Virus genome (UHGV): UHGV-0140723
Length of the DNA: 12,374 bases
Source: a virus
Reading direction: 5' to 3' (one strand)
Shown: positions 5,959-10,608 of the stretch, in pieces
How the letters are laid out: the number at the start of each line of letters is the position of its first letter
How positions within the stretch are numbered: the first letter of the stretch is position 1
The notes under the pieces: model-generated
The model's input: the letters and a program-made list of their open reading frames with translations, nothing else
Told to the model about the DNA's origin: nothing
Database searches by the model: none
Position numbers and translations under genes: made by a program

Positions 5959-6037
5959 TTTTGGATTCTCCAGTTTAGGAAGTGGGCTGGCTTGCCCGTC
6001 TGATGCAAATATTAAATAACCATAGTCAAAGAGTCAA
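5959..6037 (-). promoter_or_regulatory. divergent promoter + stem-loop + RBS cassette (first module of the array)
   Basis: Sense strand: -35 TTGACT (6032-6037), 17 bp, -10 TAATAT (6009-6014), short hairpin GGGC/GCCC (5984-5997), RBS TGGAGAA, ATG 5958. Same architecture as family 1, different sequence. Confidence 0.55.
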
Positions 6038-6203
6038 TAGGAATTTTAAAAATATTTTTGCAAAAAAAAAAAACTGTAATGAAACGGGTGCGCGCGATTA
6101 CCACAAAACAGAACTATAATCAAGAATTATTTTTCAATCCGCTACAAATTTTTCTGTTGACTTTTATTTTCAGATGTGGTAGCCTTGTGAGAAATGGCGA
6201 CAG

Positions 6204-6400
6204 CCCCACCTACCCCCACCTACCTGCACAATTCTAAAATGATTTTTCTTGCCCGACCTGAGCGGGGTCTGCACGTTTTGAAAATGAAAAAGCTCTTTGG
6301 AGATTACCTGCACAGTTTGAAAATGAATTTTCTCTTTGGAGTTCAAAATTTTCTCTACAGATTTCTCTACAGAACTCTACCTGCACAATTCTAAAATGAA
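6204..6400. repeat. cluster of short direct repeats in an ORF-free segment
   Basis: Four copies of CTGCAC(A/G)nTT(C/T)(T/G)AAAATGA starting at 6224, 6269, 6309 and 6382, two of them within a ~40-bp tandem unit (6268-6302 vs 6308-6342, 28/35 identical); tandem cccacctac x2 (6204-6222); tandem tttctctacag x2 (6351-6373). Confidence 0.6.
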
Positions 6401-6443
6401 AAAGCCCTCCTTACCTGAAAAATTTACCAGATAAGAAAGGCTT
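6391..6443 (-). terminator. intrinsic terminator-like long hairpin downstream of the macrodomain gene
   Basis: Sense RNA: AAGCCUUUCUUAUCUG / loop GUAAAUUUUU / CAGGUAAGGAGGGCUU gives a 16-bp stem with three G.U wobbles, followed by UUUCAUUUU. The wobbles would be C-A mismatches on the opposite strand. Confidence 0.5.
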
Positions 6444-6472
6444 AGGCTATTGTGAATATCCTACAGAGTTTC

Positions 6473-7258
6473 TTAGTTCTTTGCGTCTAAGAAGGTAACT
6501 TCTGGTGAAGAGAAGATTGCCTCGATATCCTCATCAGTTCTTGCATAGATATAAGCTTCTGCATCACTACCAAATGTTACAGCAATTCTGTGATTGCTCT
6601 TTGACAGGTGGGTAACTAGAGCGTTACTTAGAGACATCTTTTCAACCGGAGGGTTACTTTGATGTATCTTACCTTTTCTTCGTCTGAAGAGGGTAACTGC
6701 GTTATCTGTGAACACTGCTACACCTGCAAAGTATTCTGGTTCACAGTAGTTCTTCCAACCTGAGCGTAACTTGTGGTACATCTCGCCTTCATAGACATAC
6801 AGATAAACATCTACACTCTTCATCACCTGATTGATGATAACTGTGATGGCTTGAGGGTCAAGTCCACCGATACCTGCACCAATCATAGGTAAACCAACTT
6901 TCTTCAACTGATTAACTTCACAGTATCTGTTAAGCTGCTTCAAAGATGACTCTAAAGCACTGTATCGGGCATCTTTACCAGTCTTAAGCTGAGTGTAAAG
7001 GTTAGCTATACGGCCTTGTTCTAAACGTGCTACAGAGAAATTACCCAGTAAATTTTCACAGGGTTTGTGGCCTATACCACCTGCATATAGATAAACTTCT
7101 GTATCGGTCTCATATGCTTTTGGGTAAAGTTTAGAAATCTTGTCAGCGATACCTGCACCCATTAAATTCATACAGTTGCAACCGTGACCGATGATGTCAA
7201 ACTTACCTTTATCAAATGCGGCAAAGATATCACCATTGATTATTTTTACAATACCCAT
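6473..7258 (-). CDS. macrodomain protein, TARG1/OARD1/DarG-like N-terminal domain (~150 aa) plus unknown ~110-aa C-terminal domain
   Basis: 261-aa ORF; ATG 7256-7258 abuts the upstream stop (TAAATG) with RBS GGGAGAG. Motifs GDIF...GHGCNCMNLMGAGIA and LPMIGAGIGGLD match, from memory, the GDLF...HCISEDCRMGAGIA and MPRIGCGLD signature regions of human TARG1. Confidence 0.7.
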   Translation of the reverse strand: MGIVKIINGDIFAAFDKGKFDIIGHGCNCMNLMGAGIADKISKLYPKAYETDTEVYLYAGGIGHKPCENLLGNFSVARLEQGRIANLYTQLKTGKDARYSALESSLKQLNRYCEVNQLKKVGLPMIGAGIGGLDPQAITVIINQVMKSVDVYLYVYEGEMYHKLRSGWKNYCEPEYFAGVAVFTDNAVTLFRRRKGKIHQSNPPVEKMSLSNALVTHLSKSNHRIAVTFGSDAEAYIYARTDEDIEAIFSSPEVTFLDAKN

Positions 7259-7459
7259 TTAACATCTCTCCCAAGACTCTTTATCTTCTGAAGGTTTTAC
7301 ACGCTGTCCTTCGTGGTCTACCCAGATGCACCCACAACCTTCACAGATTACTGGCATTGCGTAGCCAGCTTTAAAGTCATCTTCAGTGATAAGACCTTTT
7401 AAGTCACCTGTATCACGTCCGAACATTTCGATAGAACAATCTTTACAGAAGTCAGCCAT
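7259..7459 (-). CDS. small Cys-rich protein (66 aa, CxxC...CEGCGC, zinc-ribbon-like)
   Basis: ATG 7457-7459 overlaps the TGA of the upstream gene (ATGGCTGA); RBS AAGAGG 9 nt upstream. The track ORF 7259..7537 begins at a GTG inside the upstream gene; I prefer the coupled ATG. Confidence 0.5.
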   Translation of the reverse strand: MADFCKDCSIEMFGRDTGDLKGLITEDDFKAGYAMPVICEGCGCIWVDHEGQRVKPSEDKESWERC

Positions 7460-7679
7460 GAATAATTGCCTCTTGAATGATGATACCTTTACCACAACGA
7501 CTTTTAAAGTCTTCCAATGGTTCAGAGATGAAGCCACGTAAGCAGTCAGTAAATACTAAGTTCTTCCTGTAAGCTATCACATCATTTGCTGTAAATGGGA
7601 TGACCTCATTTCGTCCAATGAACACTGCTGACCTGATAAGCTTTCGTGTCTTTTTATCTCTGGCTAGTATTACTTTCAT
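7452..7679 (-). CDS. hypothetical basic protein (75 aa)
   Basis: ATG 7677-7679 with RBS GAGAAGG 7 nt upstream; overlaps the end of the upstream gene by 26 nt in another frame. Confidence 0.55.
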   Translation of the reverse strand: MKVILARDKKTRKLIRSAVFIGRNEVIPFTANDVIAYRKNLVFTDCLRGFISEPLEDFKSRCGKGIIIQEAIIHG

Positions 7680-7980
7680 AGTTTACCTTCTCAGTTAGCT
7701 CATATAAATCAACATGCTCAATACTATCAATGTTGATATCAATCTTTTTGAAGCGTTCTATCACTTCGTTGTCAGTCATCCATATCAGACACCAATGATT
7801 CTGAATGGATTCTTCAAGAAGGTCAACACAATCTTTAAAAGTTTTTGTGTCACTTCTTGTTCCGACCACTGCAATTGTTCCATATAGCCACTTACCATTG
7901 CCGTAAGTTACTTGTGCTACACCAACCTCTTTATCTTTCTCGTAGTAAACGGCTACAAAATCTCTTCCATTAATCTGCAT
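7654..7980 (-). CDS. hypothetical protein (108 aa)
   Basis: ATG 7978-7980, 2 nt after the upstream stop; RBS GAGGAAG. Confidence 0.6.
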   Translation of the reverse strand: MQINGRDFVAVYYEKDKEVGVAQVTYGNGKWLYGTIAVVGTRSDTKTFKDCVDLLEESIQNHWCLIWMTDNEVIERFKKIDINIDSIEHVDLYELTEKVNYESNTSQR

Positions 7981-7982
7981 AG

Positions 7983-8252
7983 TTACTTCCTCGTTTTAAG
8001 AACTGCTAAGATTTCTTTAGAGTCTGGTAAGAACCATGTGTAGTGATTCTCTTTGATTTCTGGATGAGTGTCAACCTTTATTTTGCACTCTTTACCAACA
8101 TGCTTAAGCTGTGCTGTGACACCTTGCATAAAGATATGACACATCACATTATCCATAATGGTTGGTATGAAGTCAATTCGCATATAAGTTTCTTTTGGTC
8201 GCGGTAACAGTAAGTACCCTTCTACGTAAAAAGTATCTTCATTCTCTGTCAT
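7983..8252 (-). CDS. hypothetical protein (89 aa)
   Basis: ATG 8250-8252 overlaps the upstream stop (ATGA); RBS AGGAAA. Confidence 0.6.
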   Translation of the reverse strand: MTENEDTFYVEGYLLLPRPKETYMRIDFIPTIMDNVMCHIFMQGVTAQLKHVGKECKIKVDTHPEIKENHYTWFLPDSKEILAVLKTRK

Positions 8253-8518
8253 TGCTGTTTATTTCCTAATAAAATCATGTCAATAAGGTTGTTAGCTTTG
8301 ATTGTGCACTGGTAAAAGCCGTCACGATAGAACTCAAGGGCTGCTGCTACATTACTGCCTGTGTTGCCTTTGATGATATACCGTGATTCTTCTTGAGTGT
8401 ACTTGTCACTCTCACTTACTTGGGAGTTTTTGAATGTACTGCTCACTTTGTTCGTTGAACACCCTGACATAGTTATCAGTAACACAAACATTATAAAACT
8501 CTGGCTTAGTTTTTTCAT
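8249..8518 (-). CDS. putative lipoprotein (89 aa); o-spanin-like by architecture
   Basis: N-terminus MKKLSQSFIMFVLLITMSGC is a signal peptide with a lipobox-like MSGC; second Cys in the mature part. RBS AAGAGGT 8 nt upstream. Start lies 107 nt inside the 3' end of 8412..8759. Confidence 0.6.
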   Translation of the reverse strand: MKKLSQSFIMFVLLITMSGCSTNKVSSTFKNSQVSESDKYTQEESRYIIKGNTGSNVAAALEFYRDGFYQCTIKANNLIDMILLGNKQQ

Positions 8519-8759
8519 ATGTTAGTACCTCTTTTGTATGCTTATTCTTAGCAAGCACATCTTTCAAATCATTTTTGTAATTGGTGCTCAGTGTGACTAA
8601 CCCTTCCTGATAAGCATCTTTAGCAACACTTATGAGCTTTTGATTGTTTAGCTCAGTTTCAGCAACTTGATAGTCTCTGTAAGAGTATCCTCCCCAGACA
8701 CCTGCCCCAACTAAGAAAACAATTATGAAAGTAGCTTGACAGAACTCTTTAAATGTCAT
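8412..8759 (-). CDS. membrane-anchored protein (115 aa, N-terminal TM helix FIIVFLVGAGVWGG); i-spanin-like by architecture
   Basis: ATG 8757-8759 with strong RBS AGGAGA 7 nt upstream, immediately after the terminator at 8778..8799; single N-terminal hydrophobic helix then a charged domain. Confidence 0.6.
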   Translation of the reverse strand: MTFKEFCQATFIIVFLVGAGVWGGYSYRDYQVAETELNNQKLISVAKDAYQEGLVTLSTNYKNDLKDVLAKNKHTKEVLTYEKTKPEFYNVCVTDNYVRVFNEQSEQYIQKLPSK

Positions 8760-8777
8760 TTAACAATCTCCTGAAAT

Positions 8778-8799
8778 GAAAAAGGCTCCCGAAGGAGCC
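8778..8799 (-). terminator. rho-independent terminator
   Basis: Sense RNA GGCUCC-UUCG-GGAGCC, a perfect 6-bp GC stem with UUCG tetraloop, followed by UUUUUC. Lies 13 nt after the stop of CDS 8812..9276. Confidence 0.8.
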
Positions 8800-8811
8800 T
8801 GTATCTTAACC

Positions 8812-9276
8812 TTAACCGAGGACTTTAGCAAGGACATTTGCAGCCATCGAAGAAGCTTTTGCAGCAGCAGCTACCCCAGCTTTGACAGTGCTATCCTTGA
8901 TAGCAGATACCGTTGCAGCATCAGTAAAGAGATAAGTAGTTGTTTTAGAACCACTTGTAAAGGAAAGCATAAGAGCAGTTTCCAGATTGAAAGAGCGATA
9001 CGGAGCACCTTCTTTAACGATACCTTCAGCACCTAATTCTGAAGCCATCCCCATATCATAGATAGTCATCAGGTTTTCTTTGTGTGCTGTGGTTGAGCCA
9101 GAACCCTTTACGTGTTTCTTAACATTCAAAAGAGCACGATACTCTCGGATGTTACCGTCTGCTTTTACGTTGACAGCACGGAAGATTTTACCCTCAAAGT
9201 TGCTCTTGATAATGTTACGAACTACTTCAGATTTGTTTGCCGTAACGTCCAGTGCTACCGTAATGATATTGTTCAT
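8812..9276 (-). CDS. hypothetical protein (154 aa, Ala/Ser/Thr-rich C-terminus)
   Basis: ATG 9274-9276 with RBS GAGAG; last gene before the strong terminator. Confidence 0.7.
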   Translation of the reverse strand: MNNIITVALDVTANKSEVVRNIIKSNFEGKIFRAVNVKADGNIREYRALLNVKKHVKGSGSTTAHKENLMTIYDMGMASELGAEGIVKEGAPYRSFNLETALMLSFTSGSKTTTYLFTDAATVSAIKDSTVKAGVAAAAKASSMAANVLAKVLG

Positions 9277-9286
9277 AAGTTTTCTC

Positions 9287-9982
9287 TCAATGTTTAACTA
9301 ACATGGTTTTGATGTGTGGAAGGATTCTGCTCACCTTCTGCACATTCTTCTCTGTGTCTTCTATAAAACATACTATATTAAAGTAAGGCAGAATGCAAGA
9401 CTGAATCATCCTCACTTTCAAACTTTCTGCACTTATAGAGTTAGTTCCAAAACCACGCATAAAAAGCATGTAATCATGCTCTATGTAATGCCTTAAAAAC
9501 ATCTCAGTAGGGATTCTCTGAGATTCACCTCTAGCTGTCAAGAGTCCAATGGCAGCATGATTAGCAATTGCATCAATGATATTGAAAACATACGTCGGCT
9601 TTGCACTTACAGAGTCAAGCAAATTAGTGTACTGTGAAAATGACCCATCAATCAATTCCGTTGAGTAATCTTCGTGATTAAAATTTGTAAGAACACCATC
9701 AATGTCTGCTAAGATAAGGTTACCTTTTTCTACAAGGTCTTTATTGGCTATGACTAAGCTGTCACGCCTTACACCTATAGTTTGTCCAGTCTCTTTATCT
9801 ACAACATTCACAATTGGCTCTGATGTGTGAAACTCTTCAAGTGAACATATAACTTCTCTTGCAGTGTCTTCAAAATCCCTACACTGTTCTGGAGTCCATA
9901 CACAGGAATTAAGACCTAACTCATGAGGATGTAAGTCATAAGCATGACACAGTACTTCATCAGACTTTCTTAATTTTTTCAT
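9287..9982 (-). CDS. HAD-superfamily phosphatase-like protein (231 aa); resembles the 3'-phosphatase domain of T4 polynucleotide kinase/phosphatase but has no P-loop kinase domain
   Basis: HAD motif I LILADIDGVLT, motif II GLLTARGES and a C-terminal acidic motif FIEDTEKNVQKV parallel, from memory, the FDVDGTL, VVSGRES and AIDDRTQVV motifs of T4 Pnk. No GxxxxGK(S/T) anywhere. ATG 9980-9982 overlaps the upstream gene by 23 nt. Confidence 0.65.
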   Translation of the reverse strand: MKKLRKSDEVLCHAYDLHPHELGLNSCVWTPEQCRDFEDTAREVICSLEEFHTSEPIVNVVDKETGQTIGVRRDSLVIANKDLVEKGNLILADIDGVLTNFNHEDYSTELIDGSFSQYTNLLDSVSAKPTYVFNIIDAIANHAAIGLLTARGESQRIPTEMFLRHYIEHDYMLFMRGFGTNSISAESLKVRMIQSCILPYFNIVCFIEDTEKNVQKVSRILPHIKTMLVKH

Positions 9983-10508
9983 GATTTACCTTAGAAATGT
10001 TTGTTGCAAATTCACATTGAGCGATAACTTTCATGTTGTTATAGACATCTTGAGAATACTTCTTAGCTTTAGGGATTCTGTACGAATACCCAGCATTATA
10101 TGATGCTAAAACTTTTTGTAAAGTCTTCTTTGACTTTGGCTGACCATGTACCTTTGTCCAAAACTCAAGCTCTTTGTGCGTTTCCTTTGCAGCATAGTCA
10201 AAGTCTTTTAAGAGTTTCTTTTTAGCCACATTAGGACTAATTTTGTTACGCTTTACAACAGTCTTCAAGTGATTCTGGAAAATACCATAATCATGTGTCT
10301 TTTTATTCTCTACCTTCAGACCTAACTCTGACTCTTGTAAGGCTATAGCAGCTAGAGTGATACCCCAACCTTTGCCCATGTTATTCTCACCATACTGGTA
10401 AGCTTTTAACATGTTTACTTTTTGGCTAATTGATAGCTCTGGGCAGTCAACTGCATAAGATAAGTGTGCTGTAAACATTAAGCACAAACCTAGAATCAAT
10501 TTCTTCAT
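9960..10508 (-). CDS. exported lytic transglycosylase-like protein (SLT domain, 182 aa) with cleavable signal peptide
   Basis: N-terminus MKKLILGLCLMFTAHLSYA is a signal peptide. Family-1 lytic transglycosylase motifs ALQESELG (catalytic E-S), DYGIFQN and LASYNAGYSY. ATG 10506-10508 with RBS AGGAGAA. Confidence 0.8.
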   Translation of the reverse strand: MKKLILGLCLMFTAHLSYAVDCPELSISQKVNMLKAYQYGENNMGKGWGITLAAIALQESELGLKVENKKTHDYGIFQNHLKTVVKRNKISPNVAKKKLLKDFDYAAKETHKELEFWTKVHGQPKSKKTLQKVLASYNAGYSYRIPKAKKYSQDVYNNMKVIAQCEFATNISKVNHEKIKKV

Positions 10509-10539
10509 TGGTTCTCCTGTTTAGTTTATCGTGACAACA

Positions 10540-10568
10540 ATTATACAGCACTCTGCACAAAATACAAA
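10540..10568 (-). promoter_or_regulatory. sigma70-like promoter for the 9960..10508 unit
   Basis: Sense strand TTTGTA (10563-10568), 17 bp, consensus TATAAT (10540-10545), about 30 nt upstream of the ATG. Confidence 0.5.
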
Positions 10569-10591
10569 TAAAAAAGGCCGCCGGAGCAGCC
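10569..10591 (-). terminator. rho-independent terminator after rIIB
   Basis: Sense RNA GGCUGC-UCCG-GCGGCC (6-bp stem with one U.G wobble) followed by UUUUUUUAUUU; starts about 17 nt after the rIIB stop. Confidence 0.7.
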
Positions 10592-10608
10592 TTTTAAGAA
10601 ATTACTTA

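Follow-up and report, generated by a model that had tools for sequence, protein, structure and literature searches.

Downstream of rIIB, the 12,374-nucleotide stretch of viral DNA analysed here (the 12.4-kb window) carries three minus-strand genes, referred to below as g1, g2 and g3. The first-pass annotation had described them as a self-contained unit encoding an exported lytic transglycosylase, a kinase-less phosphatase related to polynucleotide kinase (Pnkp) and a protein of unknown function, with a content that differs from the map of phage T4. The question raised by this locus is whether such a cluster is unusual, and what its three products would do, separately or together. Our analysis indicates that the locus is probably the conserved accessory transcription unit, dispensable in the laboratory, that comprises genes 3, 4 and 5 in Felix O1-like myoviruses of the Ounavirinae, with g1 encoding a Vs.1-type protein, g2 a Pnkp-type phosphatase and g3 a WYL_2 barrel.

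Identity and layout of the locus

The window comes from a Felixounavirus and is not T4-like, with 99.1% identity between the region and LF110P1. The same trio is found in about 300 phage genomes, at least 80% of the region is covered in 258 records, the gene order is identical in annotated relatives, and the arrangement reaches Kolesnikvirus, Pectobacterium phage Wc4 and Yersinia phage P778. The three-gene cluster after rIIB is an ordinary and known one, previously sequenced and annotated in Felix O1-like phages. The comparison with T4, where denB and ndd were named as the genes after rIIB, is moot for a Felix O1-like genome, in which the trio at this place is the rule.

The open reading frames are g1 (10508-9960, 182 aa), g2 (9982-9287, 231 aa) and g3 (9276-8812, 154 aa), with an overlap of 23 nt between g1 and g2 (9960-9982) and a gap of 10 nt between g2 and g3. 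The reading frames, the overlap and the bracketing by two terminators were borne out. The proteins are not divergent denB or ndd homologues; g1-g3 matched only the Vs.1, PseT and WYL_2 families. Their T4 homologues are vs.1 for g1, the phosphatase portion of pseT for g2 and 31.1 for g3, all of them located elsewhere in the T4 genome. Searches of the window for Rfam families and tRNAs found neither, an NCBIfam search returned only noise, and single-sequence PDB searches with g1 and g2 gave no match.

Taken as a whole the locus is routine, being present in about 300 sequenced Ounavirinae genomes, with terminators published in 2010 and genes screened in 2025. The main practical value of the analysis lies in the correction of gene names.

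Boundaries and expression of the unit

The terminator after rIIB (10566-10595, minus strand) is formed by a AAAAGGCUGC/GCGGCCUUUU stem (10595-10572) with a UCCG loop, followed by a T-run. It folds with a dG of -15.7 kcal/mol (z = -4.2), and none of 200 shuffles folds equally well. The loop is UUCG in relatives, and the structure is kept with pairing-preserving stem changes in SUSP1, mistaenkt and L010. The terminator after g3 (8778-8800, minus strand) reads AGGCUCC-UUCG-GGAGCCU (stem 8800-8783), again followed by a T-run, with a dG of -14.0 kcal/mol (z = -4.4) and no shuffle as stable among 200. It is invariant across Felixounavirus, has a UACG loop in SUSP1, and is replaced at the matching place in L010, P778 and Wc4 by terminators with other stems. 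Among the differing stems of relatives, L010 has GGGCTAC/GTAGCC and SUSP1 has GGGCTGC/GCAGCC.

The presence of terminators at both places with differing stems across relatives is beyond chance, and just three strong minus-strand terminator-like sites exist in the window, two of them these. Folding against shuffles and conservation in relatives confirm both the rIIB terminator and the UUCG-tetraloop terminator after g3; a 2010 study of Felix O1 had already listed them under the names t2 and t5, respectively (PMC3185647, Table 2).

The promoter assigned to the unit, TTTGTA-N17-TATAAT, presents a more mixed picture. The sequence is present on the minus strand at 10568-10540, with the -35 element TTTGTA at 10568-10563, a 17-nt spacer containing a conserved TGTGCAG, and the -10 element TATAAT at 10545-10540. 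The -10 element is invariant in five phages of Felixounavirus and Suspvirus and reads TATACT in L010, whereas the -35 element differs between relatives (TTTGTG, TTTGAA). The site is missing from the list of a consensus scan, which returned 47 sites in the window versus 34 ± 6 in shuffles, because its -35 element shares only three of six bases with TTGACA. We regard it as a plausible candidate sigma-70 promoter, with a conserved -10 element and a weak and variable -35 element.

We also considered TGTGCAG-N7-TATAAT as a phage (middle) promoter class and rejected it, with one occurrence in the 85-kb genome of the relative humlepung against 0.5 expected; TGTGCAG-N7-TAnnnT is found there at this site alone. 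In humlepung, the related motif ATTT..GTGCAG is confined to this site and to a single non-coding stretch that contains four tandem copies. Within the 25 nt upstream of g1, a Shine-Dalgarno sequence AGGAG can be read at 10514-10518 (minus strand).

In Felix O1, RT-PCR placed the transcript peak of ORFs 3 and 4 at 25 min and that of ORF 5 at 10 min, and the products of all three were absent from the virion proteome (PMC3185647). Expression of the unit would be of delayed-early to middle timing, initiated at the weak promoter (10568-10540) or arising from read-through of the rIIB terminator.

g2, a predicted phosphatase of the Pnkp type

The C-terminal domain of g2 (residues 87-231, 9287-9724, minus strand) carries the motifs of a PNKP-type HAD phosphatase. 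The g2 alignment shows no variation at D93-I-D95-G-V (D93/D95 at 9706-9698), T149-A-R151, K189 and E208-D209, and these residues align with the Asp pair, the Ser/Arg, the 'vvK' Lys and the DD pair of T4 Pnkp. The T4 residues aligned with D93/D95 and T149/R151 are presumably D165/D167 and S211/R213. Pfam PF25109 does not match g2 itself, but is matched by 4 of 9 relatives (best 5.1e-8) and faintly by the syntenic gene of L011, and the Wc4 orthologue is named PNKP phosphatase domain protein in UniProt. The motifs had initially been read as DxDGT and GRES. Pnkp-like motifs do align, but their letters differ from that reading: motif I is D93-I-D95-G-V-L-T (DxDGV), and 'TARGE' stands opposite the 'SGRES' of T4, with T149 and R151 kept.

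The N-terminal domain (residues 1-86, 9725-9982, minus strand) is a beta-rich orphan domain with an invariant H13-A14-Y15, modelled by AF2 with a pLDDT mostly above 90. A Walker A motif (P-loop) was looked for in g2 and is absent, and a profile of residues 1-86 found no similarity in the PDB, in T4 Pnkp (hhalign E 0.37) or in the N-terminus of phiEa21-4 gp7. From this lack of similarity, we rejected the idea of a decayed kinase domain. With its conserved HAD motifs, no Walker A motif and an N-terminus unlike that of T4 Pnkp, g2 can be retained as a kinase-less HAD phosphatase of the PNK type. The kinase-less state, pointed out in the first-pass annotation, is unremarkable and common among phage PNKP-type phosphatases; many viral phosphatase-domain entries of 125-225 aa without a kinase are among the Foldseek matches. 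The labels 'polynucleotide kinase' and '5'-kinase/3'-phosphatase', found in hundreds of records, are wrong, because the kinase domain is missing.

Mechanistically, g2 would be a HAD phosphomonoesterase like the phosphatase of T4 Pnkp, dependent on Mg and working through an aspartyl-phosphate, and would most likely strip 3'-phosphates from nucleic-acid ends or from 3'-nucleotides. It would be unable to phosphorylate 5' ends, because an unrelated 86-residue domain takes the place of the kinase domain.

The substrates could also be of another kind. Small phosphoesters are the usual substrates of HAD enzymes, and in humlepung, a Felixounavirus relative, many nucleotide/NAD salvage genes (Prs, Nampt) lie just upstream, while the end-repair pathway is incomplete, with neither a kinase nor an RNA ligase found in the annotation. 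These observations would fit a small-molecule or nucleotide phosphatase of nucleotide-pool or NAD-related metabolism, rather than an enzyme of polynucleotide ends. The fold of g2 is nearest to polynucleotide phosphatases, ahead of other HAD enzymes. We consider the metabolic role rather unlikely.

g3, a predicted divergent WYL_2 barrel

The product of g3 (8812-9276, minus strand, 154 aa) had been left as an unknown protein, but profiles, fold and its relation to T4 gp31.1 make it assignable to the WYL_2 superfamily. Against PF10902 (WYL_2, formerly DUF2693; cut-off 26.7) g3 scores 12.7 bits (E 0.16), compared with 27.7 bits for the Wc4 orthologue and 74.1 bits for T4 gp31.1, and 8 of 10 intermediate relatives match the family. 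The g3 family profile scored 93.6% (E 2e-7) against T4 gp31.1. The predicted structure, of medium confidence (pLDDT 76.6), is a Sm-like SH3 beta-barrel into which a helix (residues 75-89) is inserted and which ends in a helical tail rich in Ala (residues ~120-154), and its top fold matches are the WYL domains of CapW, DriD and PafBC. The tail, checked for a membrane-targeting amphipathic helix, has only a moderate hydrophobic moment, 0.35. Database records leave g3 as 'hypothetical' despite its WYL_2 superfamily membership.

DUF2693 has been assigned to the WYL superfamily (PMC4012209), and the WYL domains of CapW, DriD and PafBC bind single-stranded DNA (PMC11662680). By analogy, g3 would be a free-standing barrel whose ligand is most likely single-stranded nucleic acid or a compound derived from a nucleotide.

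Relation between the three proteins

We found nothing beyond the synteny of the lineage that joins the three proteins in one system. Nevertheless, the trio, or at least g2 and g3, could be pictured as a counter-defence or end-processing module, in which the WYL_2 protein would capture either a nucleotide signal or nucleic acid that is damaged or single-stranded, the phosphatase would remove 3'-phosphate or 2',3'-cyclic-phosphate marks, and both together would blunt host nucleases or host RNA/DNA-damage sensing. The trio is kept together in deep lineages (Felixounavirus, Suspvirus, Kolesnikvirus, Wc4, P778, L010, L011) despite nearby insertions, and in L022 and L028, where the order is shuffled, all three genes still lie within 3.3 kb. 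Adjacency, on the other hand, is weak evidence, as Ounavirinae genomes are syntenic throughout. The binding of single-stranded DNA by related WYL domains would be consistent with such a module, as would the counter-defence candidates in the neighbourhood (rIIA/B and a macro protein resembling DarG), but a PADLOC search with g1-g3 gave no match.

A module of this type would also agree with the dispensability of the trio in a defence-poor laboratory host. The SUSP1 orthologues agp083, agp084 and agp085 were all 'Not Fit' in a knock-down screen (PMC11879866), although this CRISPRi-ART screen is weakly sensitive in SUSP1, where capsid guides mostly cut plaque size only and the spanins were likewise 'Not Fit' (PMC11879866). 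In the viable natural phage Meda, g2 is knocked out by a stop at codon 109, together with R176C at an otherwise invariant residue, and g3 is intact and 100% identical to the copy in the window, which argues against an obligate pair.

As a linkage test, we scanned 80 other WYL_2 loci from IMG/VR by HMM for members of the g1 and g2 families. A PNKP-type phosphatase or SLT gene was found within 6 kb in only two of these viral loci, both on Ounavirinae-like contigs, and a general linkage between WYL_2 and PNKP genes was rejected. The usual neighbours of the IMG/VR WYL_2 genes are a primase-helicase and other early genes on podovirus-like contigs. Globally, we judge a module built from these proteins to be improbable.

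A previously unrecognised counter-defence pair of g2 and g3, possibly with g1, in which the WYL_2 protein sequesters either nucleic acid that is single-stranded or carries cyclic-phosphate ends, or a nucleotide signal, and the phosphatase erases 3'-phosphate marks, is likewise a long shot. The sequestered species could be those made or read by host WYL/CARF-type sensors and abortive-infection nucleases, and the N-terminal domain of g2 could be a lineage-specific targeting domain. If the pairing were functional, it would represent a new counter-defence mechanism and give roles to long-orphan T4 genes, with the first functional lead for 31.1 and vs.1.

g1, a predicted exported SLT-like protein

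The product of g1 (9960-10508, minus strand) is best described as a Vs.1-family SLT-like murein hydrolase, predicted to be exported. It matches phrog_600 (1e-57) and aligns with T4 Vs.1 (NP_049725) in hhalign at 99.7% probability (E 7.9e-27, 140 columns). Its own score against Pfam SLT (PF01464), 19.2 bits (E 9.2e-4), lies under the 21.3-bit cut-off, but SLT is matched in 14 of 15 aligned relatives (best 8.2e-12). The best PDB match of the family profile is EtgA (8urn, E 7e-4), with goose lysozyme nearly as good, and tblastn found relatives of g1 in 2128 phage records, T4-like and Vi01-like phages included.

The putative catalytic Glu59-Ser60 (10334-10329, minus strand) falls in invariant or near-invariant columns: E59, Q78, Y137, N138, G140 and Y151 are invariant in the alignment, and conservation reaches at least 90% at S60 and G75. 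The ES, GxFQ (G75-x-F-Q78) and YNAG (S136-Y-N-A-G140) motifs align with EtgA and goose lysozyme. The N-terminus consists of MKK, LILGLCLMFTAHL and SYA|VD, with a 13-residue h-region and a KD11 of 2.51, and from hydropathy and direct reading we assign a putative signal peptide to residues 1-19 (10508-10452, minus strand). T4 Vs.1 and phiEa21-4 gp6 have N-termini of the same kind, and the mature part of g1 contains two conserved cysteines (Cys22/Cys165). The motifs, the homology to Vs.1, the SLT matches of relatives and the Sec-type N-terminus uphold the initial reading of g1 as an SLT-type enzyme that begins with a signal peptide.

We infer that g1 carries a Sec signal peptide whose cleavage frees the mature protein in the periplasm. 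There, Glu59 would provide the catalytic acid in a domain like that of family-1 lytic transglycosylases or goose lysozyme, and the enzyme would cut or remodel murein locally. A role at injection, one of those first proposed, is unlikely because the Felix O1 virion proteome does not include gene product 3, whose transcript reaches its maximum at 25 min (PMC3185647).

Although g1 carries an SLT-type domain, is named 'putative lysin' or 'lysin' in many records and lies 1.2 kb upstream of an i-/o-spanin pair (8759-8249), its being an endolysin or a member of a lysis cassette with these spanins is very unlikely indeed, given the strong conserved terminator between g1 and the spanins, the separate Phage_lysozyme-type lysin (gp35, PMC3185647; humlepung_11) and holin elsewhere in Felix O1-like phages, an N-terminus resembling a short cleavable Sec signal and not a SAR anchor, the coexistence in T4 of Vs.1 and endolysin E, and the lack of phenotype on knock-down of the SUSP1 orthologue. 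The protein is not the lysis endolysin, and the labels 'lysin' and, in some records, even 'endoribonuclease' are misleading for what, by its sequence, is a Vs.1-type SLT protein predicted to be exported.

Comparison with known systems

The barrel of g3 is shared with T4 gp31.1 and other WYL_2 proteins, as well as with the WYL domains of PafBC, BrxR, CapW and DriD, all of the Sm-like/SH3-like type. With WYL_2 it has in common the core F-x-V-x-F/N-V-K-K/A-D-G-x-x-R ... K-H-L/V-K-G ... Y-R, but it is longer by the inserted helix and the C-terminal tail. As g3 has neither an HTH nor a WCX domain, it cannot be counted among transcription factors like CapW and BrxR.

T4 Pnkp (PseT), at about 18% identity to g2, differs in having a kinase domain and P-loop, and no RNA ligase partner is annotated in humlepung. 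The stand-alone PNKP-type HAD phosphatases (PF25109) of Wc4 and of phages PTXU04 and Jk06 are kinase-less like g2, as are, among cellular enzymes, Tpp1 of yeast and ZDP of plants. Only relatives in Felixounavirus, Suspvirus and Mooglevirus share the N-terminal domain of g2, and even the N-terminus of phiEa21-4 gp7 differs.

T4 Vs.1, whose SLT similarity was reported earlier (PMC1524935), resembles g1 in length (181 vs 182 aa), in the signal-like N-terminal segment and in the ES, GxFQ and YNxG motifs, at about 32% identity. It lacks the Cys22/Cys165 pair and the Asp preceding GxFQ, and its gene lies between regB and vs, whereas g1 follows rIIB. EtgA is a small Sec-exported single-domain family-1 enzyme, as g1 is predicted to be, and its catalytic Glu and the Asp before GxMQ align with g1, although the sequence similarity is weak and g1 has no secretion-system context. 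Other specialised small lytic transglycosylases of secretion systems include IpgF, IagB, VirB1 and P19.

A three-gene unit typical of Felix O1-like phages

The three genes that follow rIIB form a well-sequenced, previously annotated unit of Felix O1-like phages. An ORF scan placed all long ORFs of the window on the minus strand and recovered the trio as the first-pass annotation had described it: g1 (10508-9960, 182 aa), g2 (9982-9287, 231 aa) and g3 (9276-8812, 154 aa), with the ends of g1 and g2 overlapping by 23 nt and a gap of 10 nt between g2 and g3. Over its 2 kb, the region shares 99.1% identity with Felixounavirus LF110P1 and 94-97% with more than 200 Felix O1-like phages of Escherichia, Salmonella and Shigella, and at least 80% of it is covered in 258 records. 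Given the LF110P1 identity and these covering records, the window is, by sequence, a Felix O1-like myovirus (Ounavirinae) and not a T4-like phage; the contrast with the T4 map, which had made the locus look unusual, has no bearing on it. The gene order in annotated relatives is rIIA, rIIB, 'putative lysin', 'polynucleotide kinase', hypothetical, i-spanin, o-spanin, several small genes and a macro-domain 'phosphatase'.

Terminators and candidate promoter

Two hairpins bracket the unit, as proposed, one after rIIB (stem 10595-10572, -15.7 kcal/mol, z -4.2) and one after g3 (stem 8800-8783 closed by C(UUCG)G, -14.0 kcal/mol, z -4.4); none of 200 shuffles folded as well as either. Both are conserved, with stem sequences that change while pairing is kept in the more distant relatives SUSP1, mistaenkt, the metagenomic contig L010, Yersinia phage P778 and Pectobacterium phage Wc4, and they are the published Felix O1 terminators t2 and t5 (PMC3185647, Table 2).

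The promoter proposed for the unit is present as written, with a conserved TATAAT (TATACT in L010) and a conserved TGTGCAG seven bases upstream of it, but its -35 element matches only 3 of 6 consensus positions and varies between relatives, which is why a consensus scan did not call it. This sigma-70 scan is noisy in such AT-rich DNA (47 matches against 34 +/- 6 expected). We consider the promoter a plausible but unproven candidate.

The best sigma-70 match near the unit (TTTACA-N16-TATAAT, 11/12) sits within g1 on the minus strand (10095-10122), with the g2 start 113 nt further downstream. Because codons of the conserved S-Y-N motif spell out the TATAAT, the match may simply reflect coding, or it may be an internal promoter for g2-g3.

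Assignment of the three proteins

The reading of g1 as an SLT-type enzyme with a signal peptide is borne out at the family level. The single sequence falls slightly below the Pfam SLT cut-off, and 14 of 15 aligned relatives match the family (down to 8e-12). Residues E59, Q78, Y137, N138, G140 and Y151 are invariant and S60 and G75 nearly so, which reproduces the ES, GxFQ and YNxG signatures of family-1 lytic transglycosylases. Among solved structures, the family profile comes closest to EtgA, a transglycosylase of type III secretion (E 7e-4), and to goose-type lysozymes. The N-terminus, in which MKK and a hydrophobic core of 13 residues precede SYA|VD, resembles a cleavable Sec signal, of the same kind as in T4 Vs.1 and Erwinia phage phiEa21-4 gp6, and the mature part retains two conserved cysteines. 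Profile comparison links g1 to T4 Vs.1 (99.7% probability, E 8e-27), and the syntenic phiEa21-4 gene is annotated 'Vs.1'; the SLT resemblance of vs.1 was pointed out in 2006 (PMC1524935). Relatives were found by tblastn in 2128 phage records, T4-like and Vi01-like phages among them, which accounts for the stray 'endoribonuclease' labels, taken over from regB, next to vs.1 in T4. The suggestion that the protein acts during injection is disfavoured, because the g1 product is missing from the Felix O1 virion proteome (PMC3185647 abstract). An endolysin role was rejected, as the lysin of Felix O1-like phages is the Phage_lysozyme-type gp35, encoded, like a holin, elsewhere in the genome.

PHROGs files g2 under 'polynucleotide kinase', yet its sequence contains no Walker A motif, and the proposed kinase-less PNK-like phosphatase agrees well with the alignment. 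By profile, residues 81-221 align with T4 PseT 153-290, placing D93-x-D95 over the nucleophile/acid pair, T149-A-R151 over S-G-R, K189 over the T4 Lys and E208-D209 over D-D, all invariant in the family; 4 of 9 relatives match Pfam HAD_PNKP. The motifs first reported need a small correction: DIDGV stands where DxDGT was given, and TARGES in place of GRES. Residues 1-86 are confidently predicted as a beta-rich domain, in which the triplet HAY is invariant; the domain matched neither PDB chains nor the N-terminus of the phiEa21-4 orthologue; a T4-type kinase domain was rejected here, as the profile has no similarity to that of T4. A Foldseek search of BFVD showed kinase-less PNKP-type phosphatases to be frequent in phages, so this architecture is unremarkable. 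The annotation of the complete genome of humlepung, a Felixounavirus relative, includes a DNA ligase but neither an RNA ligase nor a separate polynucleotide kinase, and therefore a T4-style tRNA repair pathway is not encoded.

The third protein, left as unknown when the other two were correctly assigned, can now be placed, as a divergent member, in the WYL_2 superfamily. Single-sequence searches with g3 found nothing; a profile search of a 1.8-billion-protein representative library returned 125 relatives, mostly of 90-110 aa and matching residues 15-77. Pfam WYL_2 (PF10902, formerly DUF2693) is matched by 8 of 10 sampled relatives, and the Wc4 orthologue scores above its cut-off. T4 gp31.1, a clear WYL_2 protein (1e-20), matches the g3 family profile at 93.6% (E 2e-7). 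Unlike the short family members, g3 contains an inserted helix and, at its C-terminus, a helical tail rich in Ala.

One system or three genes

The trio is kept together in Suspvirus, Kolesnikvirus (gp6-gp8), Wc4, Yersinia P778 and two metagenomic contigs, often with the g1/g2 overlap and sometimes with extra genes inserted around or within it. Such adjacency says little in genomes that are collinear from end to end. Among 80 other viral WYL_2 loci, whose usual neighbours are replication genes, an SLT gene or PNKP-type phosphatase lies within 6 kb in only two Ounavirinae-like contigs. From this collinearity and the rarity of such neighbours, we see g1, g2 and g3 as independent accessory genes sharing one transcription unit, with a functional g2-g3 partnership as a minority possibility.

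Published work bears on both timing and dispensability. By RT-PCR, Felix O1 ORFs 3 and 4 reach their maximum at 25 min, whereas ORF 5 does so at 10 min (PMC3185647, Table 3). The SUSP1 transcriptome-wide knock-down screen, which is not very sensitive, scores each of agp083, agp084 and agp085 as 'Not Fit' (PMC11879866, supplementary data). Salmonella phage Meda is a viable phage with a natural g2 knock-out: its orthologue (L001 6588-7283) carries an in-frame stop at codon 109, confirmed by resequencing by that phage's own authors, and R176C at an otherwise invariant residue, and its g3 matches the window copy at 100% identity. In phages Tribble and GE_vB_B3, too, the tblastn match to g2 falls into 2-3 pieces.

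Neighbouring elements and the T4 clusters

The non-coding stretch 5959-6472 holds four minus-strand copies of TCATTTT(AG/CA)AA(nn)GTGCAGGTA (6218-6398), directly after a long hairpin terminator (6443-6402, dG -23.6 kcal/mol), and a similar ATTTG..TTGTGCAG stands upstream of g1 (10553-10568). In humlepung (85 kb), ATTT-N4-8-GTGCAG has seven matches, five at these five places and two inside coding sequence, and GTGCAGGTA occurs four times against 0.4 expected. The repeated motif may mark where a regulator binds; Rfam gave no match. Between about 230 and 5770, repeat and promoter scans found intergenic cassettes of ~90 nt (repeat families D1-D7 and D9) after nearly every small early gene, each with a hairpin rich in G+C (GGGGCTTA..TAAGCCCC or GGGGAGG..CCTCCCC), a promoter resembling TTTACA-N17-TAAAGT and a conserved ribosome-binding stretch, CCTTAAACTAGGAGATTC.

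A 261-aa macro-domain protein (6473-7258, minus; Pfam Macro 4.5e-7, phrog_335, T4 Tk.4-like) matches the PADLOC model of DarG (1.1e-12), the ADP-ribose-removing antitoxin of DarTG, and could reverse ADP-ribosylation of phage DNA. Directly upstream and abutting is a small conserved minus-strand ORF (7259-7459; 66 aa in relatives, starting MADFCKDC...), whose two Cys pairs (CKDC ... CEGCGC) suggest a zinc ribbon.

Positions 6473-10508 gather homologues of genes from two T4 clusters (Vs.1-like, PseT-like phosphatase, WYL_2, i-/o-spanin and Tk.4-like macro), namely regB-vs.1-vs-tk.4 and pseT.3/pseT.2 (spanins)-pseT.1-pseT ... 31.1, and the spanin-pseT adjacency is common to the T4 and Felix O1 phage groups.
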